Assembly: GCA_044238435.1 (NCBI GenBank)
Contig: JBIIDH010000001.1
Span: 5,101-69,100 of the forward strand
Origin: Ilumatobacteraceae bacterium
GTDB taxonomy: Bacteria > Actinomycetota > Acidimicrobiia > Acidimicrobiales > Ilumatobacteraceae
Direction of reading: 5' to 3'
Length of the DNA stretch: 64,000 nt
In this document: in pieces, positions 1,148 to 28,138 of the stretch
How positions within the stretch are numbered: position 1 is the stretch's first letter
How the letters are laid out: each line of letters begins with the position of its first letter
Program-made: the position numbers and the translations under genes
Notes under the pieces: model-generated
The model's input: only the letters and a program-made list of their open reading frames with translations
Databases searched by the model: none
Told to the model about the DNA's origin: nothing

Positions 1148-1384
1148 TCAGTCGACGATGCGGTCGACGCTGGTGTCGCGCTGCAGGGTGCACCACCGGT
1201 GGCAGCCGCCCGAGTGGAACCACCGCTCGGTCTGCACGCCCGACCCGTTGGTGTAGAACCACACCCGGTGCAGGTCGCGCTCGTTCGGGTCGGTGATCGA
1301 CGCGGGTGCCTCGGGGTCTTCGCCGCCGAAGCGGAACTCTTCCACCGGACGTGGGCCGCAGTGGGGGCAGGGGATCGTCAGCAT
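1148..1384 (-). CDS. soxD: sarcosine oxidase delta subunit
   Basis: 78-aa product MLTIPCPHCGPRPVEEFRFGG… is the typical SoxD N-terminus. It lies 8 nt downstream of soxB. The ORF-track N-terminal extension is spurious. Confidence 0.8.
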   Translation of the reverse strand: MLTIPCPHCGPRPVEEFRFGGEDPEAPASITDPNERDLHRVWFYTNGSGVQTERWFHSGGCHRWCTLQRDTSVDRIVD

Positions 1385-1392
1385 CGTGGCTC

Positions 1393-2601
1393 CTACTTGG
1401 TGCCGGTCGAGCCGAGGTCGGCCATCGGCTGGTCCTTGGCGAAGCGGTCGAGGGCGAACGGGGCGATGAGTTCGGGCACGCGGCCCGTGGCGATGAGTTG
1501 GGCCAACTGCTCGCCACCGGCGGGGATGGCCTTGAAGCCCCACGTGCCCCAGCCAGTGGTGATGTAGAACCCGTCGACACCGGTGTGGCCGATGATGGGC
1601 GAGAAGTCGGCCGACACGTCGCAGCGACCCGTCCACTGACGCAGGATGCGCAGGTCGCGGGTGAACGGCAGCACCATGGCCATCTTGCGCGAGCACTGCT
1701 GCAGGAACTGGAACGACGACTGCAACGAGTAGCTGGCCTGCGGCTCGTACTCATGGCCGATGAGCATCTGCCCACGGGCGGTCTGCGAGATGTACGAGTT
1801 CATCTCGGTGTCGGAGATGATGTTCGGGAACGTGCGGGCGTAGCTGTTGGTGACGAACGCCTGCAGCGGGTGGGTACGGATGGGCAGGCGCAGGTCGGCG
1901 TGGCGAGCGAGCTCCGACACGTTGCCACCCACGGCGCTCACGACGGCACCCGCGTGGATGTCGCCCATCGGCGTGCGCACACCGGTGACCCGGCCACCGT
2001 CGCGCAGCAGGCCGATGACCGGGGTGTTCTGCACCACGTGCACGCCACGACGCATCGCGCCCTGGGCATAGGCCCACACCACGCGGTCGTGGCGGGCCGA
2101 CGCGCCGGGCAGGTGATAGCTCGCGCCGAGCAACGGGTAGCGGCCGCCGCCGGCGAGGTCGATCTGCGGGCAGAGGCGCTTCACCTCGGCGGGCTCGATG
2201 AAGTGCGTCTCCACCCCGAACGCCTGGTTCAGCAGGGCGCGGGCGCGCTGGGTGCGCAGCGTGGCCTCGCTGTGGGCCAGCCACAGCAGGCCCTTGGTGT
2301 CGTGCATGATCCAGCAGCCGGTCTCGGCCTCGAGCTGTTGGTACAGATGCACGCTGTGGTCGTAGAACTTGATCGACTCAGACAACCCGTAGTTCGAGCG
2401 GATGATCGTGGTGTTGCGGCCCGAGTTGCCGCTGCCGATGTAGTTGGCCTCGATGACCAGCACATCGGTGATGCCGTGCCGCTCGGCGAGGTGGTACGCG
2501 GTCGACAGGCCGTGGCCGCCGCCGCCCACGATGACGACGTCGTACGACGACTTCGGTTCGTGCCAGGCCAGTTCGAGCAGGGTCTCGACGAACTCGTTCA
2601 T
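1393..2601 (-). CDS. soxB: sarcosine oxidase beta subunit (FAD-dependent oxidoreductase)
   Basis: 402 aa with an N-terminal dinucleotide-binding motif (YDVVIVGGGGHGLSTAYHLA) and DAO-family length. Its ATG overlaps the stop of the upstream gamma-subunit gene (ATGA). It sits between soxG and soxD. Confidence 0.85.
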   Translation of the reverse strand: MNEFVETLLELAWHEPKSSYDVVIVGGGGHGLSTAYHLAERHGITDVLVIEANYIGSGNSGRNTTIIRSNYGLSESIKFYDHSVHLYQQLEAETGCWIMHDTKGLLWLAHSEATLRTQRARALLNQAFGVETHFIEPAEVKRLCPQIDLAGGGRYPLLGASYHLPGASARHDRVVWAYAQGAMRRGVHVVQNTPVIGLLRDGGRVTGVRTPMGDIHAGAVVSAVGGNVSELARHADLRLPIRTHPLQAFVTNSYARTFPNIISDTEMNSYISQTARGQMLIGHEYEPQASYSLQSSFQFLQQCSRKMAMVLPFTRDLRILRQWTGRCDVSADFSPIIGHTGVDGFYITTGWGTWGFKAIPAGGEQLAQLIATGRVPELIAPFALDRFAKDQPMADLGSTGTK

Positions 2602-3092
2602 GCCACGGCCCCCAGTCGGTCGGGTACTTCATGGAACGCCGAGCCCGACACGATGAGCAGGGTGCGGTCGGCCTCCATCACCAGCTTGATGGCCAGGCCG
2701 CACACCATGCCCTGGGCCAGCGCCGGCCGGGCGGTGGGCAGCGGCCACTCGAGCTTGTGGGTCAGTGCCGTCAGCTGTGCCGCATCGAGCCAGGCGCCGC
2801 GGAACATGGCCTCGGGTTCGATGATGGCGTGCGGATCGGCGGCGGCCACGGCAGCGGCGTCGTCGACCGTGGCGTCGATGACCAACGCGTCGTCGGGGGC
2901 GACGCGCACCATGATGGCGCCGGCCGGCCAGGAGGCTGCGTCGATGGCAGCGGGATTGGCGGTGATGCGCACAGCCATGAGGGTGGTGAAGCGCATCGGT
3001 TCGAGTGCGTCAGAGGCGGGCACGGGCACCCTCCGGGTCGTAGAACGGGGTGGGAGCGACGGTGGCGGTGCGACCGTCGATGAACACGGCAT
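2598..3092 (-). CDS. soxG: sarcosine oxidase gamma subunit (start uncertain; alternative Met at 2996)
   Basis: A small ORF (133 to 164 aa) wedged between soxA and soxB, translationally coupled to soxB. Size and position fit SoxG. I could not recognise a sequence motif. Confidence 0.55.
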   Translation of the reverse strand: MPCSSTVAPPPSLPPRSTTRRVPVPASDALEPMRFTTLMAVRITANPAAIDAASWPAGAIMVRVAPDDALVIDATVDDAAAVAAADPHAIIEPEAMFRGAWLDAAQLTALTHKLEWPLPTARPALAQGMVCGLAIKLVMEADRTLLIVSGSAFHEVPDRLGAVA

Positions 3093-5214
3093 CGAGGAAT
3101 GGCAGACGTTTCTGCCAGCCGAGCAGCACGGTGTGGCCGAGCAGGGGAGAAGTGAAGCTGGTGGCCACGTGGCCGATCACCTCGCCGCCTTCACGGTCGA
3201 AGATGGGGGCTCCCTCCAAGGGGGCGGGGCCGTCCATCCGCATGCCGAACAGGCGGCGTGAATCCTCGAGGCTCGCCGTGCGGGCCAGCGACGGTCGGCC
3301 GATGAAGAAGGGCTTCTCCATCTTCACGGCCCATTCGAGGCCCAGGCGGGCGGGCGTGGAGTCCATCTCGGAGTCGAGCCCCACGAGGAAGTGGCCCTTT
3401 TCGAGGCGCAGGCCGAACAGCGCCTGCAGGCCGTGCGGGTGGATGCCGAGGTCGGCGCCCAGGCGCATCAGTTCGCGCCACAGTTCGACCGAGTGTGCCG
3501 TGAGGTGGTGCAGCTCGAAGCTGGCCTCGCCGGTGAACGACAGGCGCATCACGTGGCAGGGGACTCCGGCCACTGCGGCGTGCACGTGCTGCAGCATCTT
3601 CGGTGGCTCGGCCAGCCCGGCGCGGCGCAGCAGTTCGCCGGCCAGCGGCCCGGTGACGTTGATCGCTGCCAGCGAGAACGTGCGGTCGAGCACGTGCACG
3701 TCGAGGCCCCAGGTCTCGATCCAGTCGCGTACCCACATCTCGGCGAACGACGCGCCACCCGAGGTGAAGCTGAGGGCGAAACGGGTGTCGCTCTCGCGCA
3801 GGATCATGCCGTCGTCGATGACGTGGCCGCGCTCGTTCAGCAGCAGGGCGTAGCGGCTGCGGCCGGGGCGGATGTCGGCGACGTTGCAGGGGTACAGGCG
3901 CTCGAGCGCTTCGACCACGTCGGGGCCCGACACGATCATCTTGCCCAGCGTCGACACGTCGCCCAGCGACACCGCTTCGCGGACGGCCCAGTACTCGCGC
4001 ACGTGGTCGCCGTAGTTCCAGGGTCGCCACCAGCCGCCGAAGCGGTCCATGTGGGCGCCGAGGGCGAGGTGTTCGTCGTGCAGTGCGGTGCGCCGCCAGG
4101 CGTCGAGGTGCACATCGGCAGCGGCCTCGGCGATGGTGAGCTGACGCGAGGCCGGGCGACCGGTGAACGGTGCCGGCTCGGTGCCGCTGCGGTCGGCGAC
4201 GAAGGCCCGCAGATGCGGCATACATGCCCCGCCCTGACAGGTGCCGGTGCCGCACAGGCTGGCACGCTTCACCAGTTCGAGGTGCTGGAAGCCCTTCTGC
4301 CACACGCCGTCGAGGTCGTCGACGGTCACCTTCGAGCAGGGGCACACCGTGCCGGCCTGCGGGGCTGGCGGGAGGTCGAAGCGCTCGGCGGCCGCACCGA
4401 CGACGCGCACGGAGGGCTCGTCGGTCATGCGGGCGAGCAGGTCGCGAGGTGCTCGGCGAGCGCTGGTCACCACCACGCTGCGGCAGCTGTGCCGGGTGCC
4501 GTCGCGGGTGACCACGGTGTGCACCCAGCCGTCGTCGCCCTCGAAGTGGTCGAGGTCGTCGAGGTCGACGGTGACGCTGTCGTGCAGTTCGATGCCGCGT
4601 GCGGCGAGGTGGGCCGCTGCATCCGGTGTGAGGATGCCGCGCAGCATGTTGCCCTCGCACACCGGGTGCAGTTCGGCGGCACCGGTGGCGATGACCACTT
4701 CGTGGGCGTGCACGTGCAGCATGTGGTCGGGTCGGCGCACGATGACGGTGGGCCCCTGGTAGACGCCCACCACGTCGTCGCCCGACCCGCTGTCGAGCAC
4801 GAGCACCGTGTGACCACCTGCGTGTGCTGCGTCGGCCTCGGCTCGGCCGGCCTCGCTGGCACCGATGACGGCGACGTCGACGTGGGCTCGGCGCACGGCC
4901 ACCTCGATCGGTGGTGCGATGCGGGTGGGGTCGGCCAGCACCGCATTGCGTAGTGGCGGGCCACCCACCAACGGATGCCGGCGCACGTCGAGACCGGGAG
5001 CGGCTGCGGTCTGGCAGGTGCGGGTGAAGCCCACGCCGGCGACGACGGCGGAGCAGTTCCCGCAGTCGCCCGCCAGGCAGAGGGTGCCGCCGTGCTGTGG
5101 GTGCTGGCCGGCGCGGATGATCGCATCGGCCACCGTGTCGCCCGATTCGTAGGGCAGGGGCCGGTCGTCGACCACGATCCGGGCCGCGGAGATCGACTGG
5201 GAGGTCACGGTCAT
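3010..5214 (-). CDS. soxA: sarcosine oxidase alpha subunit (short 734-aa form: ferredoxin-like N-terminus, NAD/FAD domain, GcvT-like folate domain)
   Basis: N-terminus AARIVVDDRPLPYESGDTVADAIIRAG…CLAGDCGNCS matches the SoxA ferredoxin-like region. The C-terminal half is aminomethyltransferase-like. A SD-like AAAGGTG precedes the ATG. Confidence 0.75.
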   Translation of the reverse strand: MTVTSQSISAARIVVDDRPLPYESGDTVADAIIRAGQHPQHGGTLCLAGDCGNCSAVVAGVGFTRTCQTAAAPGLDVRRHPLVGGPPLRNAVLADPTRIAPPIEVAVRRAHVDVAVIGASEAGRAEADAAHAGGHTVLVLDSGSGDDVVGVYQGPTVIVRRPDHMLHVHAHEVVIATGAAELHPVCEGNMLRGILTPDAAAHLAARGIELHDSVTVDLDDLDHFEGDDGWVHTVVTRDGTRHSCRSVVVTSARRAPRDLLARMTDEPSVRVVGAAAERFDLPPAPQAGTVCPCSKVTVDDLDGVWQKGFQHLELVKRASLCGTGTCQGGACMPHLRAFVADRSGTEPAPFTGRPASRQLTIAEAAADVHLDAWRRTALHDEHLALGAHMDRFGGWWRPWNYGDHVREYWAVREAVSLGDVSTLGKMIVSGPDVVEALERLYPCNVADIRPGRSRYALLLNERGHVIDDGMILRESDTRFALSFTSGGASFAEMWVRDWIETWGLDVHVLDRTFSLAAINVTGPLAGELLRRAGLAEPPKMLQHVHAAVAGVPCHVMRLSFTGEASFELHHLTAHSVELWRELMRLGADLGIHPHGLQALFGLRLEKGHFLVGLDSEMDSTPARLGLEWAVKMEKPFFIGRPSLARTASLEDSRRLFGMRMDGPAPLEGAPIFDREGGEVIGHVATSFTSPLLGHTVLLGWQKRLPFLDAVFIDGRTATVAPTPFYDPEGARARL

Positions 5215-5253
5215 CGACAGTACACCTTTGGACAGATTCCTTGTACGAACGTT

Positions 5254-7297
5254 TCAGGAATGATCGGGGGCGGACGCACCCTGGGCAGTGGACGGTCGGG
5301 TCTGCAGGGTGACGAGTTGCTCGAACGGGATGTGGCAGCGGATGACACCACCGTCGGGAGTGGCCAGCAGCGGCGGCTCGACCGTCGAGCACAGGTCGCC
5401 TTCCAGGCGCCGCGGGCAACGGGTGTGGAACACGCAACCGCTCGGCACGTTCACGGCACTGGGGATCTCGCCCTCGAGCCGGATGCGCTCGCGAGTGTTG
5501 CCGTCGACCGACGGTGCCGCCGACAACAGCGCCTCGGTATAGGGGTGGTGCGGCCCGTCGAACACCCGCTCGGCCGGGCCGAGTTCCATGATGCGGCCGA
5601 GGTACAGCACCGCGATGCGGTCGGACAGATAGCGCACCACGCGCAGATCGTGCGAGATGAACAGATAGCTCGTGCGGCTGTCGCGCTGCAGGTCGCCGAG
5701 CAGGTTCAAGATGGCCGCCTGCACCGATACGTCGAGCGACGAGGTGGGCTCGTCGCACACCACGATGCGCGGCTTGCCGGCGAAGGCACGGGCGATGGCC
5801 ACACGCTGTTTCAGGCCACCCGACAACTGCGAGGGCCGCATGTCGAGGTGGCGGTCGGTGAGACGCACGGCGCTGGTGATGCCGTGCAGCTCGGTGTCGA
5901 TCTCCGCCGCAGGCACCTGGCCCAGGCGGCGCAGACTGCGGCCGATGATGCGCCGCACCGAATGGCGGCGATTGAGCGCCGAGTCGGGGTTCTGGAAGAC
6001 GATCTGGATGGCGCGGATGTGGTCGATCGGGCGCTTCTTGGTGTGCGCCGCGAGGGGCGTGCCGTCGAGTGTGACGACCGCTCCCTTGTCGGGCGCCGTG
6101 ATGCCGAGGATCGTGTGGGCGAGCGTGGTCTTGCCGCTGCCCGATTCGCCCACCAGGCCGAGCGTCTCGCCGGCATACAGTTCGAGCGACACATCGCGGA
6201 CGGCTTGGATCTGCTTGCCGCCCTGCTGGAAGGTCTTGCTCACACCCTCGAGGCGCAGTAGGGGAGCGACGCTGCGGTCGACCACCGTGGCCGTGCCCTC
6301 GGGGAACTCCGACGAGGCCAGTTCGGCCACCCGATCGGTGTGGTGGCAGCGCACCATCCGTCCGTCGAGCACGACCGCAGGCGGCACCTCGGTGCGGCAC
6401 CGGTCGCTCGCCAGCGGGCAGCGATCGACGAACACACAGGTGGGCAGATCGGCGCCGAGCGCAGGCAGGAACCCGGGGATCGTCTCGAGCCGCTGAGCGG
6501 TCTGGCGCGAGCCCTGGCGGGGAAGACAGCGCAGCAGCCCAACGGTGTAGGGGTGCTGCGGATTGTCGAACACCTCTTGGGCCGAGCCCTCCTCGACCAG
6601 CTTGCCTGCGTACAGCACGCCCACCCGGTCGCACATCGAGCGGATGGCACCGAGATTGTGCGAGATGAACAGCACCGAGGTGCCGAACTCGCGCTTCAGG
6701 GCCCGCACCAGGTCGAGCACCTCGGCTTCGACGGTGGCGTCGAGGCCGGTGGTGGGTTCGTCGAGGATGAGCAACTGCGGGCTCGAGGCCAGCGCCATCG
6801 CGATGACCACGCGCTGCTGCATACCGCCGGAGAGCTGGTGCGGGTAGCGGCCCAGCACCGAGTCGGGGTCGGCGATCTGCACCTTGTCGAGCATCTCGCG
6901 CGCCCGTTGGCGCGCCTCGGCACGATCGATGCCGATCACCTCGAAGGCTTCCATCAGTTGCGGACCCACCTTGATGGTGGGGTTCAGGGCCTGGCCCGGG
7001 TCCTGGTAGACGATCGAGGCGTTGTTGGCGCGGAGCAGACGCAGCTCCTCGTTCGGCATCGCCATGATGTCGCGGCCGGCGAGCGACACCGTGCCACCGA
7101 TGATGCGGGCGTTGTCGGGTAGATAGCGCACGGCGGCGTAGGCGGCCGTGCTCTTACCGCACCCGCTCTCGCCCACCAGGCCATACGACTCGCCCGGCGC
7201 CACGGCGAACGACACCCCACGCAACACCTCGCGCAGGTTGCCACGCACCATGTAGCCGAGGCGCAGGTCGTCGAACTGGAGCGCTGCCTCGGTCATC
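5254..7297 (-). CDS. ABC transporter ATP-binding protein, fused tandem ATPase domains (DppD/DppF-like)
   Basis: 681 aa from MTEAALQFDDLRLGY. It has two Walker A motifs (GESGCGKST, GESGSGKTT) and two LSGG signatures. Its ATG overlaps the stop of the upstream permease (ATGA). The ORF-track N-terminal 300 aa are out-of-frame read-through of the permease gene. Confidence 0.9.
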
Positions 7298-8186
7298 GGT
7301 CGATCAGCCCCTGGATCCCGTCGGCGATGAGGTTGATGGCCACCACCAGCGAGGCCAGCGCCAGGGCGGGCACCACACACGGCCACCAGGCGTTGCTCAG
7401 CAGGCCGGCGCGCTCTTCGAAGATGGTGCGGCCCCAGTCGGGCGAGCCGGGCTGGGTGCCGAAGCCGATGAACGCGAGGCCGGCCATGGTGAACACGGCG
7501 TAACCGAGGCGGACGGTGAACTCGACGACGATGGGGCCCATCACGTTCGGCAGGATCTCGACGAACATGATGTAGCTGCTGCGTTCGCCGCGTAGTTCGG
7601 CAGCTCGCACGTAGTCGAGGTTGCGCTCGGCGAGAACGGCAGCGCGGATGGTGCGGGCGATGATGGGGCCGAACAGGATGCCGATGAGCAGGATGATGGT
7701 GCCGCGCCCGCTGCTGAGGGCGGTGAGGGCGAGCAGGGCCACCAAGATGAGCGGCAGGCTCATCAGGGCCTCGATGAGTCGGCTCAATGCGTCGTCGAGC
7801 GGGCCACGGAAGTAGCCCATCAGCAGGCCGAGCACAATGCCGATGACAGTTCCGAGGATGACTGCGGCGGGGGCGACGATCATGATCTCGCGGGCGCCGT
7901 AGATGGCCCGGCTGTACACGTCGCGTCCGAACCGGTCGGTGCCGAACCAGTGGCCTTCCTTGAAGAACGGATGGATCCACTTGCTGAGCGGATCCTGCTT
8001 CGACGGGTCGTGGGTGGCGATGACCGAGGGGATGATCGAGCAGACCACCCAGAACAGCACGATGAGCGAGCCGACGATGAAGGTCTTCGACCGGAACAAC
8101 TGGCGGCGCAACTCCTTGCGCACCGCCTTGGCGGTGTACCCGGTGGGCGCACCGGCCGTCGGTTCGAGTTCGGCGGGCATGGTCAT
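7293..8186 (-). CDS. ABC transporter permease (DppC/OppC-like)
   Basis: 297 aa from MTMPAELEP, multi-TM, with a typical permease C-terminus. It overlaps the upstream permease stop by 4 nt. Confidence 0.85.
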   Translation of the reverse strand: MTMPAELEPTAGAPTGYTAKAVRKELRRQLFRSKTFIVGSLIVLFWVVCSIIPSVIATHDPSKQDPLSKWIHPFFKEGHWFGTDRFGRDVYSRAIYGAREIMIVAPAAVILGTVIGIVLGLLMGYFRGPLDDALSRLIEALMSLPLILVALLALTALSSGRGTIILLIGILFGPIIARTIRAAVLAERNLDYVRAAELRGERSSYIMFVEILPNVMGPIVVEFTVRLGYAVFTMAGLAFIGFGTQPGSPDWGRTIFEERAGLLSNAWWPCVVPALALASLVVAINLIADGIQGLIDR

Positions 8187-9130: not shown

Positions 9131-9168
9131 CGCTGGAGGTCAGATGGAGGTGAGTGGAGCCGGCAGCG

Positions 9169-10956: not shown

Positions 10957-11075
10957 GATCCCCCCAGAGGTCGTTGGTCGGTGCAGTATTGCACACACCC
11001 GATGTGTTGGTTCAGAGCAACCCCAGTTGCGATGAAACTCCTGACGTGCCCCGCGGCAGACAGTACCATCCGCCC

Positions 11076-17156: not shown

Positions 17157-17221
17157 TCCTTGTACGGTTGTCTCGCGAATGGCCGAGCCGGCCGCGTGTC
17201 GTGGAGGAGAGGGGCCGAGCC

Positions 17222-18391: not shown

Positions 18392-18417
18392 CCGTCGGCC
18401 TGGTTAGCCTCCACACC

Positions 18418-19584: not shown

Positions 19585-19616
19585 CAGCACCCCAGCGCAG
19601 GGGTAGTGTTCCGGCC

Positions 19617-20846: not shown

Positions 20847-22094
20847 TCAGTCGATGGTGCCGTAGGCGCCCTGATCGCCTGAGGCGGCGGCTGCGGTCAC
20901 CTCGTCGATCGACGCGCCGAGATCGGCGAGGAATGACTCCACCTTGTCGGCGTGCACGGCATTCACGGTGAGGTGCAGCGACGGGGGAGGGCCCTGCCGG
21001 TCGACGTACCAGCCGCGCCGCCACAGCGCGTCGGCGACCGCGTACACATCGAGTGCCGATGGGTCGGCAGCGCCGAACGACAGCAGCATCGCATCGGGTT
21101 CGGCGCGCAGCACCAGTTCGGGCATCGACCGCACGGCGGCAGCGATCTGCTCGGTGGCGCGTCGGGCGTCGGCCGTGAGGCGGAGGTACCCCTCGTCGCC
21201 CAGGTGGTGCATCACCGCCCACGCCGCGGCCATCGGACCGCCACCCTTGGTGCCCAGCACACCCGACGAGCCGTACATGCCGCCGAGCCAGTTGTCGGTG
21301 ACGAAGGTCTGGTAGGCACGCAGTCGCTTCGAGCGGTGCATGATCACCGACGCACCCTTCGCGGTGTAGCCGAACTTGTGCAGGTCGACCGAGATGCTGG
21401 TCACCCCCGGCACCGTGAAGTTCCACGGGGCGATGTCGTAGCCCAGCCGGGCGAGATACGTCAGCGTCACGCCGCCCATGCAGGCGTCGACGTGGCAGTT
21501 GATGTCGCGCTCGGCGGCCAGGGCGGCGATGTCGGCGATGGGGTCGACCACACCCTGCGGGTACTGGGGTGCCGAGCCCACCACCAGCACGGTGTCGTCG
21601 TCGATGGCGTCGGCCATCGCGTCTGCATCGGCTCGCCAGTCGTCGCGCACGGCAACCCGTCGGCTCTCGAGGCCGAAGTAGTAGCACCCTTTCTCGAACG
21701 CCGCGTGGGCACTGGTGGGCAGCACCACGTTCGGCCGGGCAACGCCTCGCTCGGCGCGGCCCCGCTCGCGTGCCGCCTTCACCGCCATGAGAATGCTCTC
21801 GGTGCCGCCACTCGTCATGAATCCGGCACCATCGGGGCCCGCCTGCAGCCAGTCGGCCACGATTCCCACCACCTCGGCCTGGATGGTGCGCAGGCTGGGG
21901 AACGCATCGGTGTTGAGGGCGTTGTCGGTGCTGAAGCGGCGGTGCGCCTCGTCGGCGACGGCCGACACCTCGGGCCCCGCGTAGTAGGCGAGCGTGAACG
22001 CCCGCCCGTCGCGCCACCGGACGTCGTGCTCCTTCAGCGCGTCGAGCCGGGCGAGCACCTGATCGGCAGGAACGCCGGAGGAGGGGAGTGTCAT
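20847..22094 (-). CDS. PLP-dependent group II decarboxylase / sphingosine-1-phosphate-lyase-like enzyme (start uncertain)
   Basis: 415 aa with a PLP-lysine context SISVDLHKFGYTAKGASV and a …MTSGGTESILMAV… motif. Its ATG overlaps the divergent aminotransferase ATG. Confidence 0.7.
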   Translation of the reverse strand: MTLPSSGVPADQVLARLDALKEHDVRWRDGRAFTLAYYAGPEVSAVADEAHRRFSTDNALNTDAFPSLRTIQAEVVGIVADWLQAGPDGAGFMTSGGTESILMAVKAARERGRAERGVARPNVVLPTSAHAAFEKGCYYFGLESRRVAVRDDWRADADAMADAIDDDTVLVVGSAPQYPQGVVDPIADIAALAAERDINCHVDACMGGVTLTYLARLGYDIAPWNFTVPGVTSISVDLHKFGYTAKGASVIMHRSKRLRAYQTFVTDNWLGGMYGSSGVLGTKGGGPMAAAWAVMHHLGDEGYLRLTADARRATEQIAAAVRSMPELVLRAEPDAMLLSFGAADPSALDVYAVADALWRRGWYVDRQGPPPSLHLTVNAVHADKVESFLADLGASIDEVTAAAASGDQGAYGTID

Positions 22095-23301
22095 GACGGC
22101 AACGTACCCGAGCAGCCCACTCGGGCCTGCCTACGCTCGGTTGGTGCGCACCGACGGCTTCCTCCTGAACCCCGACATCACGTTCCTGAACCACGGTTCG
22201 TTCGGAGCGTGCCCGGAGCCGGTGTTCGCGGCGTACCAGCGCCTGCAGCTCGAGATGGAACGCCAGCCGGTCGAGTGGTTGGCCCGTCGCTCCGACGACC
22301 TGCTGGGCGCTGCCCGGGCGCGCCTGGCCGCCTACCTCGGTGCGCAGGCCGACGACCTGGTGTACGTGCCCAACCCCACCACGGCGGTGAACATCGTGGC
22401 GCGCAGCCTGCGCCTGCAGCCGGGCGACGAGGTGCTCACCACCGACCACGAGTACGGTGCGATGAACCGCACCTGGCGGGTGATCTGCGAGCAGGCCGGG
22501 GCGCGCTACGTGCAGGTGCCCGTCCCCGTACCGGTCTCCACGCACGCCGACTTCGTCGAGCGACTGTGGGCCCAGGTCACCGAGCGCACCAAGGTGATCT
22601 TCCTCAGCCACATCACCAGCGACACCGCGCTCGTGTTCCCGGCCGACGAGATCTGCCGCCGGGCCAGGGCCGCCGGCATCTTCACCATCGTCGACGGGGC
22701 GCACGTGCCGGCCCACATCCCGCTGCACCTCGGCACCCTCGACGCCGACATCTACACCGGCGCCTGCCACAAGTGGCTGTGCGCCCCGAAGGGCTCGGCG
22801 TTCCTGTGGGCCCGCCGCGACGTGCAGCCGATGCTGCGTCCGCTGGTGGTGAGTTGGGGATGGGAGCCCGCCGTGCCCGGTCCCTCGCCGTTCATCGACC
22901 ATCACCAGTGGCAGGGCACCCGCGACCTGAGCGCGTTCCTGGCCACACCTGCGGCCATCGACTACGAGGAAGCCAACGACTGGGACGGTGTGCGCGAGCG
23001 CTGCCACGCCGCTGCCGTCGAGGCGAGCGCACTGCTGCACGGCGTCACCGGGTGCGAACCGTTCAGCCCCGAGCACACCGGCGACCAGCGTTCGCCCATC
23101 TGGTACGGGCAGATGGTGGCCATCCGCCTGCCCGACCACGTCGATGTGGCCGACCTGAAGCGGCGCCTGTACGACGACCACCGCATCGAGGTGCCCGTCT
23201 ACCGCTGGGCCGACATCCCCATCCTGCGCGTGTCGATCCAGATGTACAACACCCCCGACGACGTCGACCGCCTCGCCGCCGCCCTCCGCACGCTCCTCTG
23301 A
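22093..23301 (+). CDS. class V aminotransferase-fold PLP-dependent enzyme (cysteine desulfurase / isopenicillin-N-epimerase-like)
   Basis: 402 aa, …FLNHGSFGACPE…, with PLP Lys in GACHKWLCAPKGSAF. A strong SD GGAGGAGGGGAG lies 6 nt upstream. Confidence 0.75.
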   Translation: MTATYPSSPLGPAYARLVRTDGFLLNPDITFLNHGSFGACPEPVFAAYQRLQLEMERQPVEWLARRSDDLLGAARARLAAYLGAQADDLVYVPNPTTAVNIVARSLRLQPGDEVLTTDHEYGAMNRTWRVICEQAGARYVQVPVPVPVSTHADFVERLWAQVTERTKVIFLSHITSDTALVFPADEICRRARAAGIFTIVDGAHVPAHIPLHLGTLDADIYTGACHKWLCAPKGSAFLWARRDVQPMLRPLVVSWGWEPAVPGPSPFIDHHQWQGTRDLSAFLATPAAIDYEEANDWDGVRERCHAAAVEASALLHGVTGCEPFSPEHTGDQRSPIWYGQMVAIRLPDHVDVADLKRRLYDDHRIEVPVYRWADIPILRVSIQMYNTPDDVDRLAAALRTLL

Positions 23302-23369
23302 CCCGCCACCACCCGCCGCGATGAGCACCCTGCGCAGCAGGTGCGCATGTTGCTCATCGCGGTGGCGGG
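23302..23369. other. large imperfect hairpin (9-bp plus 10-bp stem with a 7-nt bulge, 23-nt loop containing two TGCGCA palindromes) between the aminotransferase and amidohydrolase genes
   Basis: The arms cccgccacc/ggtggcggg and gcgatgagca/tgctcatcgc are seen directly. The element starts 1 nt after the aminotransferase stop. It is a candidate intrinsic terminator or attenuator, or a REP-like element. Confidence 0.4.
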
Positions 23370-23392
23370 GGAGGGCGGCTAACGTCGGCGCG

Positions 23393-24265
23393 ATGGGGAT
23401 GCCGACCGACATCGGGGTGATCGACCTCATGCTGGGCATCCCCGAACCGGGCATGCGCGCCCACTGGTACGACTTCTTGAAGCCGAACCTGCGCGACACC
23501 GAGAGCCAGTCGATGGCGATGCCGGCGCAGTACCTGTTCAAGGACATCCCCGACGACCCGAGCGATGCCGACATGATCGCCTGGACCGTCGACCAGATGA
23601 ACGGCCACGGCATCGCCAAGGCGCTCATCGGCGTCGACCTCGCCGGCGGCATCCAGAACGACGCCATCGTCCGACACCCCGACCGTTTTTTCGGCTGCCT
23701 GCACGTCGATCCCAACGGCGGTATGGCCGTGGTGCGCGCCATCCAGGAGGCGCACGACCGGCTCGGCATCAAGGGCGTGTCGCTGTTCCCCTCGGGCTGC
23801 AACCCGCCGGTGCCCATCGACGACAAGCGCATGTACCCGGTGTACGCGAAGTGCGCCGAACTCGGCATCGCCGTGCTGTGCTGCGTGGGCGTGCCCGGGC
23901 CGCGGCTGCCGATGGCGGCCCAGCACGTCGAACGCATCGACGAGGTGTGCTGGTACTTCCCCGAGCTCACCTTCGTGATGCGCCACGGCGGCGAACCCTG
24001 GGTCGACCTCGCCGTGAAGCTGCTGCTGAAGTGGCCGAACCTCTACTACAGCACGTCGGCGTTCACGCCCCGGCGCTACCCGCAGGAGATCATCGACTTC
24101 GCCAACACCCGGGGGAGCGACAAGGTGATGTACGCCGGCTACTTCCCGATGGGCCTCAGCCTCGGCCGCATCTTCCGCGAACTGCCGAACGTGCCGCTGC
24201 GCGACGAGGTGTGGCCGAAGTTCCTGCGCGACAACGCCGTGCGCGTGTTCGGACTCGACCGATGA
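23393..24265 (+). CDS. amidohydrolase-2 / TIM-barrel metal-dependent hydrolase family protein (ACMSD-like)
   Basis: Start at MGMPTDIGVIDLMLGIPE. It has a C-terminal …DKVMYAGYFPMG… motif. Its stop overlaps the next ATG (ATGA). An alternative upstream ATG at 23321 lies inside a large hairpin. Confidence 0.6.
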   Translation: MGMPTDIGVIDLMLGIPEPGMRAHWYDFLKPNLRDTESQSMAMPAQYLFKDIPDDPSDADMIAWTVDQMNGHGIAKALIGVDLAGGIQNDAIVRHPDRFFGCLHVDPNGGMAVVRAIQEAHDRLGIKGVSLFPSGCNPPVPIDDKRMYPVYAKCAELGIAVLCCVGVPGPRLPMAAQHVERIDEVCWYFPELTFVMRHGGEPWVDLAVKLLLKWPNLYYSTSAFTPRRYPQEIIDFANTRGSDKVMYAGYFPMGLSLGRIFRELPNVPLRDEVWPKFLRDNAVRVFGLDR

Positions 24266-25239
24266 GTGCACCCCTGCAGCAGCGACCCACCAGCGAACGC
24301 TGGCCGTGGCCCATCCCGTTCGGCTGGTTCGCCCTCGGCTGGTCGCACGAACTGACCGAGCAACAGGTGCTGCCGCGGCACGTGTTCGGCGCCGACACCG
24401 TGCTGTGGCGCGACGCCGACGGAACCGCCCACCTGCACGACGCCTACTGCCCCCACCTCGGCGCGCACCTCGGCGTGGGCGGCAGCGTCGACGGATGCAC
24501 CATCGTGTGCCCGTTCCACGCCTGGGCGTTCGATGCCGAAGGCCGCAACACGATCATCCCCTACAGCGACCGCACCAACGCCAAGGCCCGCCTGCGCACC
24601 TACCCGGTGGTCGAGCGCAACGGGCTGATCATGGCCTGGTACCACCCGCACGAGGCCGAGCCGCAGTGGGAGATCCCCGAGGTGCCCGAGTTCGGCACCA
24701 CAGGTGTGGGGGAGGAGTTCAGCGACCCGTTCACCCGCCAGTTCGAGATCGCCACGGCATGGCAGGAGATGGCCGAGAACGGCGTCGACTCGGCCCACTT
24801 CCGCTACGTGCACGGTACTGCCGAGGTGCCCGTGCTCGAGAGCTACGAGACCGAGGGCCATCGCTCGCGGATGCGGTCGAAGCAGTTCTTCGTCACGCCT
24901 CGGGGCACCACCGAGGGCCGCATCGACAGCGACGGGTGGGGCCCGGGCTTCTCGGTGGTGCGTTTCAGCGGCATCGTCGAGACCCTGCTGCTGGGCTGTG
25001 CCACCCCGGTGGAACGCGACCGGTGCGAGATGCGGTTCACGTTCTGCGTGCGTCGTTTCGCCGACGACCGGGTCACGAGCAGTGTGGGCGAGGCCTTCGT
25101 GAACGAGGTGTCGCGGCAACTGCTGGAAGACAAGCCGATCTGGGAGCACAAGACCTACATCGACCGGCCAGCACTCGCCGACACCGACGGACCCTTCGCC
25201 GCCTTCCGCCGCTGGGCCAGCCGGTTCTACGCGGCCTGA
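24262..25239 (+). CDS. Rieske [2Fe-2S] non-heme iron oxygenase, KshA/phthalate-family-like, alpha-only
   Basis: 325 aa from MSAPLQQ. Rieske motif CPHLGAHLG…x17…CPFHAW. Mononuclear-iron motif ENGVDSAHFRYVHG (D-x2-H-x4-H). Confidence 0.8.
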   Translation: MSAPLQQRPTSERWPWPIPFGWFALGWSHELTEQQVLPRHVFGADTVLWRDADGTAHLHDAYCPHLGAHLGVGGSVDGCTIVCPFHAWAFDAEGRNTIIPYSDRTNAKARLRTYPVVERNGLIMAWYHPHEAEPQWEIPEVPEFGTTGVGEEFSDPFTRQFEIATAWQEMAENGVDSAHFRYVHGTAEVPVLESYETEGHRSRMRSKQFFVTPRGTTEGRIDSDGWGPGFSVVRFSGIVETLLLGCATPVERDRCEMRFTFCVRRFADDRVTSSVGEAFVNEVSRQLLEDKPIWEHKTYIDRPALADTDGPFAAFRRWASRFYAA

Positions 25240-25260: not shown

Positions 25261-26091
25261 ATGGCCATCCTCCTCGCCGCCGTCGCCGCCGTGCTGCTGG
25301 GCGCCTCCGACTTCTTCGCCGCCCGCTCGGCGCGCCATGCCGCCAGCCTCACGGTCACCCGCACGGTGGTGCTCACCTCGGCCGTGCTGTCGCCGCTGCT
25401 GGTGCTGGTGGTCGACTCGCGGTGGATCGGCCGCGACATGCTGCTGGGCGCGCTGGCCGGGCTGTCGATGATCACCGGGCTGATGCTGCTCTACCACGGC
25501 TACAAGGTGTCGCGCATCGGCATCGTTGCTCCCATCTCGTCGGTGCTGCTGGCTGCCGTACCGGTCGTCACCGATCTGGTGCGCGGCGAGCGCCCCAGCA
25601 CCCTCGGCACGGTCGGCATCGCCATCGGCCTCGTCGCCGTGGTGCTGACCAGCTATCAGCCGGGCGGCGAGGGCAGCGTGCGCCAGGGCGCCATCCTCGG
25701 GGTCACCTCGGGCATCGGGTTCGGCATCGCCTTCACGCTGATGGGCGAGGTGAGCGCTGAGGCCGGCCTGGCGCCCGTGTTCGCTCAACGTGGCACCGGA
25801 CTGGTGCTGCTGTGCGTGATCGCCCTGTTCCGGGCCGAGCCGTTCCTGGTGCAGCACCCGCTCGGCCGACGCATGGCGATGATCAGCGGCGTGTTCGGCG
25901 TGGTGGCCATCGGCTCGCTGCAGTTGGCGTTCCGCGAGGGGGCATCGGGCCCGGTGTCGGTGGCCGGCTCGCAGTTCGCCACCGTCGCCGTCATCCTCTC
26001 GGTGCTGTTCAACCGCGAGCGGATGCGCTGGTGGCAGGGCATCGGGGTGGGCGCCACCGCCGTGGGTGTCGCCCTGATGGCCCTCGGCTGA
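25261..26091 (+). CDS. EamA/DMT-family transporter
   Basis: 276 aa with about 10 predicted TM helices and two-repeat EamA topology. Confidence 0.7.
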   Translation: MAILLAAVAAVLLGASDFFAARSARHAASLTVTRTVVLTSAVLSPLLVLVVDSRWIGRDMLLGALAGLSMITGLMLLYHGYKVSRIGIVAPISSVLLAAVPVVTDLVRGERPSTLGTVGIAIGLVAVVLTSYQPGGEGSVRQGAILGVTSGIGFGIAFTLMGEVSAEAGLAPVFAQRGTGLVLLCVIALFRAEPFLVQHPLGRRMAMISGVFGVVAIGSLQLAFREGASGPVSVAGSQFATVAVILSVLFNRERMRWWQGIGVGATAVGVALMALG

Positions 26092-26158: not shown

Positions 26159-26235
26159 TTCGGGTGTGGCTACCGCCGCAAGCCAGCGTCGACCCGCCAG
26201 GGACTGGCCGACCGGACAGCGGCTAGGGTCGAGAC

Positions 26236-26613
26236 ATGAGCGATCGCACCAAGCCTTCCATCACCATTCCCGCCGGCGACCCGCCCGCCGACCTGCTGAT
26301 CGACGACGAGATCGTCGGCGACGGCGACGAGGCCACCATCGGCAAGCGGGTCACCGTGCACTACGCCGGTGTGGCGTGGAGCACAGGCAGCGAGTTCGAC
26401 GCCAGCTGGAACCGCGGCGAGACGTTCAGCTTCCGCCTCGGCGCCCGCGAAGTGATCGAGGGCTGGGACCGCGGCGTGAAGGGGATGAAGGTGGGTGGCC
26501 GTCGGCGCCTCACCATCCCGGCCGACCTGGGCTACGGCAGCAGGGGAGCGGGCGGGGTGATCAAGGGCGGCGAGACCCTCGTGTTCGTCGTCGACCTCGT
26601 CTCGGTGCGCTGA
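26236..26613 (+). CDS. FKBP-type peptidyl-prolyl cis-trans isomerase
   Basis: 125 aa. …VTVHYAGVAWSTGSEFDASWNRGETFSFRLGAREVIEGWDRGVKGMKVGGRRRLTIPADLGYG… is the canonical FKBP fold signature. Confidence 0.9.
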   Translation: MSDRTKPSITIPAGDPPADLLIDDEIVGDGDEATIGKRVTVHYAGVAWSTGSEFDASWNRGETFSFRLGAREVIEGWDRGVKGMKVGGRRRLTIPADLGYGSRGAGGVIKGGETLVFVVDLVSVR

Positions 26614-26623
26614 GCAACCGTCG

Positions 26624-28138
26624 GTGAGCCGCCTCAACCGCACCCGTACTCGGCGCGAGGCGACCGGCGCCACGCCACAGCCGTTCACCCCGCTGCGCAA
26701 CCCGTACCGTCCGGTGGAGGTGCTGTCGGCCGACCAGGTCGAGCACATCCACCGCTCGTCGCTGCAACTGCTGGCCACCACCGGGATGCGCATCCTCGAT
26801 GCACAGGCGCGGCGCTACTTCGCCGACGCCGGGTGCGTGGTCGACGACCTGATCGTGCGGTTCGACCCCGAGATGGTGGAGGCCACCGTCGCCCTCGCTC
26901 CTGCCGAGTTCACCCTGCGGGCCCGGAACCCGCAGCACTCGATCACGCTCGGCGGCAACCATGTGGCGTTCAGTGCCGTGGGAGGCCCCGCCTTCACCCA
27001 CGACCTCGACCGCGGGCGTCGCGGCGGCTCGGCCGCCGAACAGCGCGAGTACCTGCAGCTCATCCAGATGCTGGGCGTGGTGCACCAAGAGGGTGGCGGC
27101 CCGTTCGAGGCACTCGACCTGCCCGCCGAGACCCGGCACCTCGACCTCTACCTGAGCCTCATCCGCACCCTCGACAAGAACTGGCAGGCCGTTGCGCTGG
27201 GCCGCGAGCGCGCGGCCGACGCCATCGACATGGCCGCCATCGCCCTCGGCACCGACCGCGACGGTCTGGCTGCCATGCCCGCCGTGATGGCGGTCATCAA
27301 CACCAACACCCCGCTCACGCTCGACATCCCGATGGCCGAGGGGCTCATCGAACTCGCGGGCGCCGGACAGGCGGTGTGCGTCACCCCGTTCACGCTCGCC
27401 GGCGCCATGGCCCCGGCCACCATCGCCGGCGCGCTGGTGCTCCAGAACGCCGAAGCGCTGGCCGGTATCACCCTCACCCAACTGGTCAGGCCCGGCGCAC
27501 CAGCCATCTACGGCTCGTTCACGTCGAACGTCGACATGCGCAGCGGCTCGCCGGCCTTCGGCACTCCTGAGTTCACCCGTGCCGCGCAGGCGAGCGGCCA
27601 ACTGGCCCGCCGCTACGGGCTGCCGTTCCGGTCGTCGAACACCACGGCCTCGAACGCCGTCGACGCCCAGGCCGCCTACGAGAGCGGCATGTCGCTGTGG
27701 GGCGCCGTGATGGGCGGCGCCCACCTGGTGAACCACGCCGCAGGCTGGTTGGAGGGAGGGCTCACGGCGTCGTTCGAGAAGCTGATCATCGACGCCGAGA
27801 TGCTGCAGATGATGGCCGAGTACCTGAAGCCCATCGAGGTGAACGACGCCGAGATCGGCCTCGACGCCATCGCAGCCGTGGGGCCCGGCGGGCACTTCTT
27901 CGCCTCACCCCACACGATGGAGCGCTACGAGCGGGCGTTCTACTCGCCACTCGTGTCGGACTGGCGCAACTTCGAGACCTGGCAGGAGTCAGGCTCGATC
28001 GACGCCACCCACCGCGCCAACCGCATCTGGAAGCAGTTGCTCGACCAGTACGAGGCGCCCGTGCTCGATCCAGCCATCGACGAAGCGCTCGTCGACTTCG
28101 TGGTCCGCCGCCGGGCGGCGCTCGACTCGGTGGCCTGA
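26624..28138 (+). CDS. MttB-superfamily methyltransferase, non-pyrrolysine type (second paralog)
   Basis: 504 aa, uninterrupted. It shares blocks with the first copy ([64 protein letters not shown]). GTG start 10 nt after the FKBP stop. Confidence 0.85.
   Translation: MSRLNRTRTRREATGATPQPFTPLRNPYRPVEVLSADQVEHIHRSSLQLLATTGMRILDAQARRYFADAGCVVDDLIVRFDPEMVEATVALAPAEFTLRARNPQHSITLGGNHVAFSAVGGPAFTHDLDRGRRGGSAAEQREYLQLIQMLGVVHQEGGGPFEALDLPAETRHLDLYLSLIRTLDKNWQAVALGRERAADAIDMAAIALGTDRDGLAAMPAVMAVINTNTPLTLDIPMAEGLIELAGAGQAVCVTPFTLAGAMAPATIAGALVLQNAEALAGITLTQLVRPGAPAIYGSFTSNVDMRSGSPAFGTPEFTRAAQASGQLARRYGLPFRSSNTTASNAVDAQAAYESGMSLWGAVMGGAHLVNHAAGWLEGGLTASFEKLIIDAEMLQMMAEYLKPIEVNDAEIGLDAIAAVGPGGHFFASPHTMERYERAFYSPLVSDWRNFETWQESGSIDATHRANRIWKQLLDQYEAPVLDPAIDEALVDFVVRRRAALDSVA

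Follow-up and report, generated by a model that had tools for sequence, protein, structure and literature searches.

The window analysed here is a stretch of 64,000 nucleotides (positions 5,101 to 69,100 of contig JBIIDH010000001.1, assembly GCA_044238435.1) from an Ilumatobacteraceae bacterium of the class Acidimicrobiia. A preliminary description, made from the sequence, had flagged 27 kb of it (1148-28138) as one catabolic island for N-methylated and quaternary amines. We found that a gene set accounts for no more than about two thirds of the flagged 27 kb. The left ~19 kb (1148-20231) is a genuine functional set that clusters beyond chance, because the same gene families cluster again in another phylum. 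It encodes a methyltransferase of the non-pyrrolysine MttB superfamily (MttB1), a DMGDH-type flavoenzyme and a Sox-like oxidase, a 2-oxoglutarate (2OG) oxygenase, a Rieske oxygenase (Rieske1), a Dpp-type ATP-binding cassette (ABC) importer, two enolase-superfamily enzymes (Eno1 and Eno2) and a TetR regulator. On balance, we lean towards reading these genes as small chromosomal operons, conserved across phyla, by which an N-methylated or quaternary compound of the amino-acid type is imported and degraded aerobically, with a second MttB protein (MttB2, at 26.6 kb) probably included.

Carbon, nitrogen and one-carbon units pass between phototrophs, plants and heterotrophic bacteria to a large extent as methylated amines and betaines. 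Until 2025, the B12-dependent route through MttB was regarded as a speciality of anaerobes. The preliminary description still tied MttB chemistry to anaerobes. This is out of date, given that aerobic MttB-type betaine demethylation was described in 2025 by Mausz et al., with MtgBCD working in the aerobe Ruegeria pomeroyi (PMC12478193). The MttB route is probably in use in abundant freshwater Acidimicrobiia as well; their nutrition would then depend on the supply of cobalamin.

Recurrence of the gene set across phyla

Genes were called from third-position GC content (the window has ~69% G+C), the calls were concordant with public calls on contigs carrying identical proteins, and the called proteins were scanned against Pfam and NCBIfam profiles (Table 1). 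These scans recovered all gene families named in the preliminary description, each where it had been placed. For comparison, species-representative genomes supplied 80 loci around MttB1 orthologues, and metagenomes another 80 around MttB2 homologues (loci are designated below by L and a number); all window proteins were mapped onto these loci by tblastn.

Orthologues of Rieske1 (60-65% identity) always adjoin a 2OG gene and a family-5 ABC importer, in the conserved order LysR beside 2OG-Rieske-SBP5-permease-permease-fused ATPase, where SBP5 is the family-5 solute-binding protein. This 2OG-Rieske-ABC operon was found in Chachezhania sediminis, Sulfitobacter sp. LCG007, Hypericibacter adhaerens, a Cypionkella sp., a metagenome-assembled genome (MAG) of a Rhizobium sp. 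and metagenome contig L184. A seventh alphaproteobacterial locus, on a plasmid of Mesorhizobium WSM1497, is partial (MttB-Ldh_2-2OG-Rieske-SBP5 only). The proteins of these operons are 39-65% identical to the window proteins; for the importer, the values are 56-61% for the ATPase, 50-56% for the OppC-like permease, 51-55% for the OppB-like permease and 39-42% for the solute-binding protein. Identities of 52-65% between phyla for the 2OG-Rieske-ABC genes suggest that this one module may have spread by old lateral transfer.

The other enzymes of the left ~19 kb accompany this module. Beside the Sulfitobacter operon stand a divergently transcribed MttB gene, whose product is 60% identical to MttB2, and a gene for an StcD-like flavoenzyme. 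In L153 a Rieske1-like gene adjoins an StcD-like-MttB2-like pair, and in Leisingera a Rieske gene lies next to MttB-Asp/Glu racemase-DMGDH-like-ABC. More generally, MttB2 orthologues (55-62% identity) in Sulfitobacter, L153, Leisingera and Mesorhizobium B2-1-8 adjoin a 2OG-Rieske-ABC operon or a Rieske1-like gene and are accompanied by StcD-like or DMGDH-like flavoenzymes. The fullest case is Rhizobium sp. L182, where SoxD, SoxB, DMGDH-like, MttB, enolase, Ldh_2, LysR, 2OG, Rieske and ABC importer genes lie within 21 kb; nearly all of the left 19 kb is thus reproduced in a different phylum, with the genes in another order. Within the Acidimicrobiia, the related contig L166 carries ABC, 2OG-Rieske, DMGDH-MttB and Eno1-Eno2 units. 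Since the combination recurs across phyla in a different order, inheritance of gene order cannot account for it, and functional coupling is indicated. The proposed functional link between enzymes of the MttB, Rieske/2OG and flavin/folate types, enolases and a Dpp-like importer therefore held, the same combination being present in Rhizobium L182, Mesorhizobium WSM1497, Sulfitobacter LCG007, Leisingera and the acidimicrobial L166.

Neighbourhoods within 10 kb of MttB1 were counted over the 41 MttB1 loci of at least 15 kb. The DMGDH-type gene stands directly downstream of MttB1 in 37 of them. Sox genes are present in 12 loci, often in the order MttB1-DMGDH-SoxA-G-B-D, the Dpp-type transporter in 14, Eno1 in 10 and the TetR gene in 7. 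At least 597 loci with MttB1 orthologues were found, nearly all in MAGs of Acidimicrobiia.

MttB1 and MttB2

Both MttB proteins gave near full-length matches to the MttB family PF06253, not to an unrelated family, as the preliminary description had supposed. Neither gene has an internal stop or in-frame UAG, and because the open reading frames (ORFs) are uninterrupted, both are non-pyrrolysine members of the superfamily. The start of the MttB1 ORF could lie as far upstream as 17156. The solved homologues are 4yyc, 2qne/9yce and 7xcl, the nearest being 4yyc (a Sinorhizobium homologue; 367 bits to MttB1) and Desulfitobacterium hafniense MtgB (296 bits to MttB1). MttB1 and MttB2 are 35% and 39% identical to the D. 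hafniense MtgB, respectively, and 48% identical to each other.

In the MtgB active site, Arg312 and His348 bind the carboxylate, and Tyr97 and Phe356 form the cation-pi pair for the trimethylammonium group; replacement of Tyr97 or Phe356 by non-aromatic residues raises the Km several hundred-fold (PMC13080624). Arg312 and His348 are kept in MttB1, in MttB2 and in all 79 of 79 MttB1 orthologues, and Gln stands at His348 in 17 of 69 MttB2 homologues of at least 60% identity. The Tyr97/Phe356 positions are occupied by Ala/Gly in MttB1 and by Gly/Gly in MttB2, the orthologues having A, G or S and G. A Trp at MtgB position 352 is conserved in the MttBs, and the residue pattern of MttB2 is G-R-H-W-G. 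From these residues, both proteins are probably methyltransferases for carboxylated quaternary amines; read from the alignment, both fail one defining feature of a glycine-betaine-specific MtgB, the aromatic cage.

A third MttB paralogue was observed outside the window, in an Ilumatobacteraceae group (L040-L050; for example, L043 4334-5902 and L047 6706-7971). It is 41-43% identical to MttB2, shares with the Sinorhizobium protein 4yyc a Tyr at MtgB position 97, and is encoded between a RACo activase gene and an MTHFR-like gene, directly upstream of MttB1-DMGDH.

The 2OG-Rieske-ABC operon

The 2OG enzyme has the triad H158-x-D160...H227, which is invariant across 121 homologues. In this family, an Asp in the triad denotes a hydroxylase rather than a halogenase, and the enzyme should, given its HxD triad, be a hydroxylase. 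Its homologues carry PF23169 (HalD); the window protein, at 17.9 bits, stays under the cut-off of 26. An AlphaFold 2 (AF2) model (predicted local distance difference test score, pLDDT, 94.9) matched HalD, HalB, BesD and a BesD hydroxylase homologue best among solved structures, at template-modelling (TM) scores of 0.64-0.70, and the top 38 Foldseek matches were all HalD, HalB, BesD, HalA or the hydroxylase homologue. Enzymes of the BesD/HalD type act on free lysine or ornithine (PMC10041140).

The Rieske1 gene overlaps the 2OG gene by 4 bp. The CxH..CxxH and HxxxxH motifs of the protein are intact, and its top five solved matches are CntA (two sequences), 3n0q, Stc2 and 4qup, with 120 bits to CntA over residues 25-351. 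The earlier assignment as a GbcA/Stc2-like Rieske oxygenase is thus borne out in that the closest solved relatives are CntA, Stc2 and a GbcA-like chain. It does not extend to GbcA orthology: with the NCBIfam GbcA profile the protein scores 145 bits, where 670 are required.

Just left of soxD, and convergent with it, is a second Dpp-like ABC transporter (fused ATPase, permease) at 2-1102 (+), which continues beyond the left edge of the window, as seen in L161 and L162. The contigs with an identical SoxB through which the window was extended leftwards are only 3-8 kb long. Two back-to-back Dpp-like transporters likewise occur in L166.

The DMGDH-type and Sox-like flavoenzymes

The 819-aa enzyme, which had been described as DMGO-type, has the four domains and the covalent-flavin adenine dinucleotide (FAD) histidine of the DMGDH/DMGO family: the STWHAAG motif of that histidine is aligned and conserved, and the dinucleotide motif GGGVVG stands at the start of the protein. 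By bit score it is nearer to mammalian DMGDH (540 bits to human/rat DMGDH) than to DMGO (285 bits to the Arthrobacter enzyme).

The assignment of soxAGBD stood in part. The beta and delta subunits are clear, and a SoxB-like protein identical to that of the window occurs on four freshwater metagenome contigs with the same neighbours. The alpha subunit is SoxA-like and short: it is ~230 aa shorter than canonical SoxA, its TIGR01372 (soxA) score is 268 bits against a cut-off of 1164, with only the C-terminal half matched, and an N-terminal 2Fe-2S-like domain and the folate domains are kept. The same short form was found in relatives (743-755 aa). The ORF at the gamma position matched no Pfam or NCBIfam profile, SoxG included, even at E<=1, and a single-sequence AF2 model of it was unusable (pLDDT 44); it is conserved between SoxA and SoxB in relatives, at 31-47% identity.

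The enolases and the TetR regulator

The preliminary description had placed the two enolases in the fold of proline-betaine and hydroxyproline-betaine racemases/epimerases. By rank and scores, they are not orthologues of HpbD. The best solved matches of Eno1 are acid-sugar dehydratases, which are weak (~100 bits), and no HpbD chain was matched at E<=1e-10. For Eno2, the HpbD chains 4h2h and 4e8g rank 16th and 20th (82 and 73 bits, versus 118 bits for the top match). HpbD requires Lys164 and Lys266 (pdHpbD numbering), with a Trp and an Asp binding the betaine (PMC3950512). In Eno2, E-G-K occupies the KxK site and Asp stands in place of the strand-6 lysine (Asp or Asn in homologues), as read from other MLE-group structures rather than from a direct alignment to HpbD; by these residues, a two-lysine racemase is unlikely.

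Eno1 genes stand upstream of MttB1 in the 10 loci counted above, which include co-directional Eno1-ABC1 kinase-MttB1-DMGDH-Sox arrays in two Chloroflexota. Eno2 homologues (42-48% identity) occur inside MttB-enolase-DMGDH-like operons of Mesorhizobium and Paracoccus, and also beside 2OG-Rieske-ABC operons; in Leisingera, an Asp/Glu racemase of a different fold takes the enolase slot. In these operons the enolase is often followed by a gene of the Ldh_2 or ornithine-cyclodeaminase family, both of which include imino-acid reductases. The presence of an enolase, or of a racemase of another fold, in MttB-DMGDH-like operons points to a chiral intermediate, and glycine betaine would then not be the whole story.

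Homologues of the TetR protein (49-58% identity) are encoded directly upstream of MttB1 in the 7 loci that have one, and from this position the TetR protein is likely a local regulator. A search for inverted repeats as a TetR operator in the divergent intergenic regions returned only weak, imperfect pairs of 12-13 nt.

Corrinoid partners in related loci

Nowhere in the 64 kb of the window does the B12-binding signature DxHxxG...SxL...GG occur, and an Rfam scan at gathering thresholds found no riboswitch (cobalamin, glycine, THF or any other) in the whole window. In the Acidimicrobiia, the signature occurs within 10 kb of MttB1 orthologues in 6 of the 41 loci, and B12-binding motifs lie near MttB2 homologues in seven metagenome contigs. 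A B12-binding protein, a Pterin_bind protein, MTHFR and RACo are encoded within 10 kb of MttB1 orthologues in L039, L040, L041, L043, L047, L050 and L068. In L039, L040 and L068, a Pfam-confirmed corrinoid protein, a Pterin_bind methyltransferase, MTHFR and a RACo/RamA-type activase stand beside MttB1-DMGDH-Sox. In the aerobic R. pomeroyi system, mtgB, mtgC and mtgD are unlinked, and in other bacteria mtgBCD are often co-located with genes for later steps of glycine-betaine demethylation (PMC12478193).

The right third of the flagged region

A different picture was obtained for 20.3-26.6 kb. The genes for the VOC protein, the pyridoxal-phosphate (PLP) decarboxylase, the class-V aminotransferase, Amidohydro_2, the KshA-like protein, EamA and FKBP were found within 10 kb of MttB1 in none of the 41 loci. 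They are shared only with L081 and L082, the closest relatives by MttB2 (75-76% identity), and there with insertions and deletions: L082 is without the Amidohydro_2 and KshA-like genes, and in both loci MttB2 is flanked by cell-wall hydrolase genes. The KshA-like protein matched KshA steroid 9-alpha-hydroxylases best among solved structures (134-144 bits), against at most 47 bits for DdmC and NdmA. Its proposed role as an N-demethylase was not supported: its best matches are steroid 9-alpha-hydroxylases, none a demethylase, and the gene is lost in L082.

Because of the absent co-occurrence with MttB1, the sharing with close relatives only and the steroid-hydroxylase matches of the KshA-like protein, these genes are neighbours without demonstrated pathway membership. 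The expectation of synteny in relatives was accordingly borne out for the left ~19 kb, whose families recluster in another phylum, and not for the genes at 20.3-26.6 kb, and the claim that the whole 27 kb is one island fell with the latter. MttB2 is the exception in the right third, as it probably belongs to the same system as the left ~19 kb.

Two observations concern the DNA to the right of MttB2. Between MttB2 and a SIS gene, at 28155-33062 (-), a secreted or membrane protein of 541-622 aa with a faint Vps62-like match and a 707-aa Band_7/SPFH protein are encoded; since L081 and L082 have cell-wall hydrolases in their place, this stretch is variable. Further right, four genes at 34166-38737 (+) are kept together downstream of MttB2 in L081 and L082. 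They encode a 2OG amino-acid beta-hydroxylase like clavaminate synthase, VioC and GntD (34166-35155), a PLP enzyme like GntG and threonine aldolase (35212-36279), a 356-aa ORF product without assignment and an enoyl-CoA hydratase. The hydroxylase and aldolase would split a beta-hydroxy amino acid into glycine and an aldehyde, following the logic of the conversion of trimethyllysine to butyrobetaine. A link of this set to MttB2 is speculative.

Proposed pathway and alternative explanations

In the pathway that we propose for the left ~19 kb, the Dpp-type ABC system would import the substrate. MttB1, by its family membership, would take one N-methyl group from a quaternary amine with a carboxylate and place it on the Co(I) of a corrinoid protein, whose gene would lie elsewhere in the genome, and MttB2 may act on the same or on a second compound. 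As suggested by the partners encoded in relatives, a pterin-binding methyltransferase would pass the methyl group to tetrahydrofolate, and a RamA/RACo-type activase would repair oxidised cobalamin. The DMGDH-type enzyme and then the Sox-like oxidase, to judge from their domains, would oxidatively strip the remaining N-methyl groups, with the one-carbon units delivered to folate via GCV_T. From their families and linkage, the 2OG hydroxylase and Rieske1 may use O2 to hydroxylate or demethylate the same or a closely related compound or to cleave its C-N bond, and the enolases may act as isomerase or dehydratase on a chiral intermediate.

Several observations weigh against this proposal. No corrinoid protein, pterin methyltransferase, RamA or B12 riboswitch was found within the 64-kb window, and the aromatic pair of MtgB is replaced in both MttBs. 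The Sox-like enzyme is atypical, with its short alpha and unrecognisable gamma subunit. No Rieske reductase of the ferredoxin-reductase type is encoded in the window or in the seven orthologous operons. Family-5 binding proteins are not known as classical betaine binders. No protein of the locus reached an NCBIfam equivalog cut-off, and so no substrate name can be transferred. In addition, the 2OG-Rieske pair was found in none of the 41 MttB1 loci of GTDB Acidimicrobiia, the link inside the phylum being confined to the window's own lineage (L166-168).

As to the substrate, the collinear gene order makes glycine betaine the simplest candidate for MttB1-DMGDH-Sox. For the complete set, a chiral amino-acid betaine is at least as likely, because of the link to an enolase or racemase and the missing cage residues for glycine betaine. 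It is a tentative possibility that the 2OG-Rieske-importer operon, the MttB clade with A, G or S at position 97, the flavoenzyme, the enolase or racemase and Ldh_2 make up an undescribed aerobic pathway for a chiral betaine that is not glycine betaine, carnitine or, by orthology, stachydrine. The substrate may be a lysine-, ornithine- or pipecolate-derived betaine (N-epsilon-trimethyllysine, homostachydrine) or a hydroxyproline-type betaine. If so, one substrate family would be acted on both by methyl transfer that depends on B12 and by two types of oxidation that need O2.

A plainer alternative is a glycine-betaine route of MttB1-DMGDH-Sox, the Acidimicrobiia version of MtgB, with the 2OG-Rieske-ABC operon and the enolases as an unrelated neighbouring pathway. 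The order MttB1-DMGDH-SoxAGBD would match three successive demethylations and recurs in about a dozen loci, of which L039 and L068 also have corrinoid genes next to it; the score of the flavoenzyme to mammalian DMGDH and the Ruegeria precedent (PMC12478193) argue the same way. We nevertheless consider this route unlikely as the full account, given that MttB1 orthologues have A, G or S at Tyr97 and Gly at Phe356, where such changes raise the Km of MtgB several hundred-fold (PMC13080624), that an enolase or racemase is found in MttB-DMGDH-like operons of three alphaproteobacterial genera and near MttB1 in 10 of 41 loci, glycine betaine being achiral, and that the full combination recurs in Rhizobium L182. 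The contrary extension, in which the whole 27 kb is one co-evolved island that funnels several betaines to sarcosine and glycine, with the KshA-like protein as a demethylase and the enolases as betaine racemases, appears improbable. All the named families are indeed present and contiguous, the presence of two MttB paralogues and of two types of oxygenase suggests more than a single substrate, and MttB2 orthologues elsewhere associate with the 2OG-Rieske-ABC operon. However, the genes at 20.3-26.6 kb are absent from all 41 MttB1 loci, in close relatives MttB2 lies amid cell-wall hydrolases and the Amidohydro_2 and KshA-like genes are not constantly present, the best solved matches of the KshA-like protein are steroid hydroxylases, neither enolase is of the HpbD type, and no marks of an island were found among those looked for.

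Two further explanations we regard as very improbable. If the MttBs needed no corrinoid partner and, for instance, handed the methyl group straight to tetrahydrofolate or to some other acceptor, the absence of corrinoid genes from the window and from most close relatives would be explained, with no B12 motif in 64 kb and only 6 of 41 loci having one. Against this, all characterised members of the family methylate a corrinoid protein (PMC12155760, PMC13080624), the genes of the aerobic Ruegeria system are likewise unlinked (PMC12478193), and relatives at 69-78% identity carry corrinoid, pterin-binding, MTHFR and RACo genes beside MttB1. A chance neighbourhood of unrelated metabolic genes in a gene-dense genome, which we hold to be just as remote, describes how the right third behaves. 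For 1.1-19.6 kb it is contradicted by the synteny across phyla, about ten families of the left 19 kb reclustering in Alphaproteobacteria with another gene order and other regulators, and by the adjacency of MttB1 and DMGDH in 37 of 41 loci.

A histidine betaine was set aside as a substrate, given that the aromatic lyase and urocanase genes lie 5-7 kb from MttB1, behind another regulator, and in close relatives only (7-8 loci). As a separate observation, histidine ammonia-lyase-type and urocanase genes were seen near MttB1 in L009, L011, L014, L019, L021, L027, L033 and L037, and in L166 from 20775 onwards; this may be mere lineage synteny.

Comparison with known systems

The window locus resembles MtgBCD of R. 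pomeroyi (PMC12478193) and MtgB/MtgC/MtgA of D. hafniense in having a non-pyrrolysine MttB, here in an aerobe, linked to DMGDH- and Sox-type enzymes, with Arg312 and His348 kept and with a corrinoid protein, a pterin methyltransferase, a MetF-like MTHFR and a RamA-like activase beside the orthologues of relatives. It differs in the divergence of its MttBs (35-39% identity), in the replacement of Tyr97 and Phe356 and in lacking corrinoid genes in cis in the window. It also adds enolases, a 2OG hydroxylase, a Rieske oxygenase and a Dpp-type importer, which are absent from the described MtgBCD loci, and its host is one of the freshwater Acidimicrobiia.

With HpbD-HpbB1C1-HpbA of Paracoccus and Rhodobacter (PMC3950512) and stc2/stcD of Sinorhizobium, it has in common the scheme of an enolase, a Rieske oxygenase as the first and a flavoenzyme as the second demethylase, an ABC importer and, probably, a chiral betaine; StcD-like flavoenzymes also stand beside MttB2 orthologues elsewhere. 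Unlike those systems, its enolases are not HpbD orthologues, Eno2 is without the second catalytic lysine position (by indirect alignment), an MttB is added to or replaces the Rieske step, and a reductase gene of the HpbC/Stc3-4 type is missing. Presumably the importer also sets it apart, being of family 5 and not equipped with a betaine-type binding protein. Stachydrine-like gene sets with an added MttB were noticed as a side observation in L068 (828-6403 and 18701-20749) and L153 (2955-7817), which are acidimicrobial or metagenomic loci with MttB, StcD-like flavoenzymes (Oxidored_FMN and Pyr_redox_2), a Rieske oxygenase and an ornithine-cyclodeaminase-family gene.

CntAB, GbcAB and Stc2 supply the best solved matches of Rieske1, whose motifs are intact, yet Rieske1 is orthologous to none of them (120 bits to CntA; 145 against 670 for GbcA), has no adjacent reductase gene and is invariably paired with a BesD/HalD-like 2OG hydroxylase, which the known systems lack. 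The 2OG enzyme shares its modelled fold (TM 0.64-0.70), and its homologues the Pfam family HalD, with the BesD/HalB/HalD halogenases and their hydroxylase homologues (PMC10041140); it differs in its identity of 10-16%, its HxD triad and its place in a catabolic operon with an importer. The flavoenzymes share architectures, the covalent-FAD histidine motif and folate-binding GCV_T with DMGDH/DMGO and TSOX (mammalian; Arthrobacter; Corynebacterium/Stenotrophomonas), from which the window differs by a SoxA-like subunit that is ~230 aa shorter and below the family cut-off and by an unrecognisable gamma ORF.

Collectively, the locus works like a hybrid of the MtgBCD and HpbD/Stc pathways that fails features of MtgB, of GbcA/CntA and probably the lysines of HpbD. 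It is not categorically new, as the aerobic MttB route and every one of the chemistries have been described before; no description exists of the conserved combination or of the distinct MttB clade. In the literature searched, no published account of such a set of genes, or of an MttB locus in Acidimicrobiia, was found. This agrees with the preliminary description, which knew of no such actinobacterial locus. The locus is not specific to actinobacteria, since it recurs in Alphaproteobacteria. The distinct MttB clade appears to be wired to a 2OG hydroxylase, a CntA-like Rieske oxygenase, an enolase or racemase and a family-5 importer, which no described betaine pathway combines. As the same gene set is present in cultivable rhizobia and roseobacters, the substrate is directly testable, and once identified it would supply functions for several thousand genes whose present annotation is hypothetical, 'trimethylamine methyltransferase family' or 'ring-hydroxylating dioxygenase'.

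Gene content and composition of the window

The genes of the flagged region are listed in Table 1; those for VOC/glyoxalase, the PLP decarboxylase-like protein, the class-V aminotransferase fold, Amidohydro_2 and FKBP are absent from the preliminary description.

Table 1. Genes called between 1148 and 28138 of the window, with the matches on which their assignment rests
Gene product	Position	Strand	Evidence
SoxD-like delta subunit, 78 aa	1148-1384	-	PF04267, 65 bits; comes after SoxB in relatives
SoxB-like FAD oxidase beta subunit, 402 aa	1393-2601	-	PF01266 DAO, 225 bits
Conserved 132-aa ORF in SoxG (gamma) position	2598-2996	-	Position between SoxA and SoxB
Short SoxA-like alpha subunit, 734 aa	3010-5214	-	Fer2_4, SO_alpha_A3, GCV_T (218 bits), GCV_T_C
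Fused double ABC ATPase, Dpp/Opp-type, 680 aa	5254-7296	-	Two ABC_tran, two oligo_HPY
ABC permease, OppC-like	7293-8186	-	BPD_transp_1, OppC_N
ABC permease, OppB-like	8183-9130	-	BPD_transp_1, BPD_transp_1_N
Family-5 solute-binding protein, 595 aa	9169-10956	-	SBP_bac_5, 255 bits; no NCBIfam equivalog
Fe(II)/2OG oxygenase, BesD/HalD family, hydroxylase type, 267 aa	11076-11879	+	HxD...H triad, fold
Rieske1, non-haem-iron oxygenase alpha subunit, CntA/GbcA/Stc2 group, 381 aa	11876-13021	+	Rieske, Ring_hydroxyl_A
DMGDH-family flavoenzyme, 819 aa	13022-15481	-	DAO, FAO_M, GCV_T, GCV_T_C
MttB1, non-pyrrolysine MttB superfamily, conserved core 490 aa	15540-17012	-	PF06253, 635 bits
Eno1, MR_MLE enolase superfamily, divergent from MttB1	17201-18391	+	MR_MLE_C, 145 bits
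Eno2, enolase superfamily, MLE-like group	18418-19584	+	MR_MLE_N, MR_MLE_C
TetR-family regulator	19617-20231	+	TetR_N, 36 bits
VOC/glyoxalase	20297-20824	+	Pfam
PLP decarboxylase-like	20847-22058	-	Pfam
Class-V aminotransferase fold	22141-23301	+	Pfam
Amidohydro_2	23321-24265	+	Pfam
KshA-like Rieske protein	24262-25239	+	Pfam
EamA transporter	25261-26091	+	Pfam
FKBP	26236-26613	+	Pfam
MttB2, non-pyrrolysine MttB superfamily, 504 aa	26624-28138	+	PF06253, 640 bits

Proteins identical to those of the window occur on freshwater metagenome contigs. The GC content of the region is even (0.65-0.70 throughout), it contains no tRNA genes, and no Pfam match to an integrase or transposase was found in the flagged region. 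None of these marks of a mobile island was present, flanking repeats not having been searched for, and the idea of a plasmid-like or horizontally acquired island as a whole was rejected.

The actinobacterial host with a Pup-proteasome that had been inferred earlier was confirmed by Mpa, Dop, PrcB, PrcA and PafA at 54-63 kb. By its MttB1 orthologues, which belong to Ilumatobacteraceae or Acidimicrobiaceae MAGs, the host falls within the Acidimicrobiia. Adjoining the Pup-proteasome genes, 47703-56201 encodes an HelY-like DSHCT helicase, TatC, TatA, a signal peptidase, DUF3866 and PafA, an order that we take to resemble the usual actinobacterial arrangement. Stretches of 0.8-1.6 kb without a gene called from third-position GC lie at 41924-43536, 46928-47702 and 56202-57085, though 47108-47800 holds a YegS_C-like ORF. 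Finally, a ThyX-type (Thy1) thymidylate synthase of 531 aa is encoded at 44186-45781 (-). The usual length of ThyX is roughly half of this, and the protein has two separate Thy1-matching stretches, which suggests an internal duplication or a fusion.

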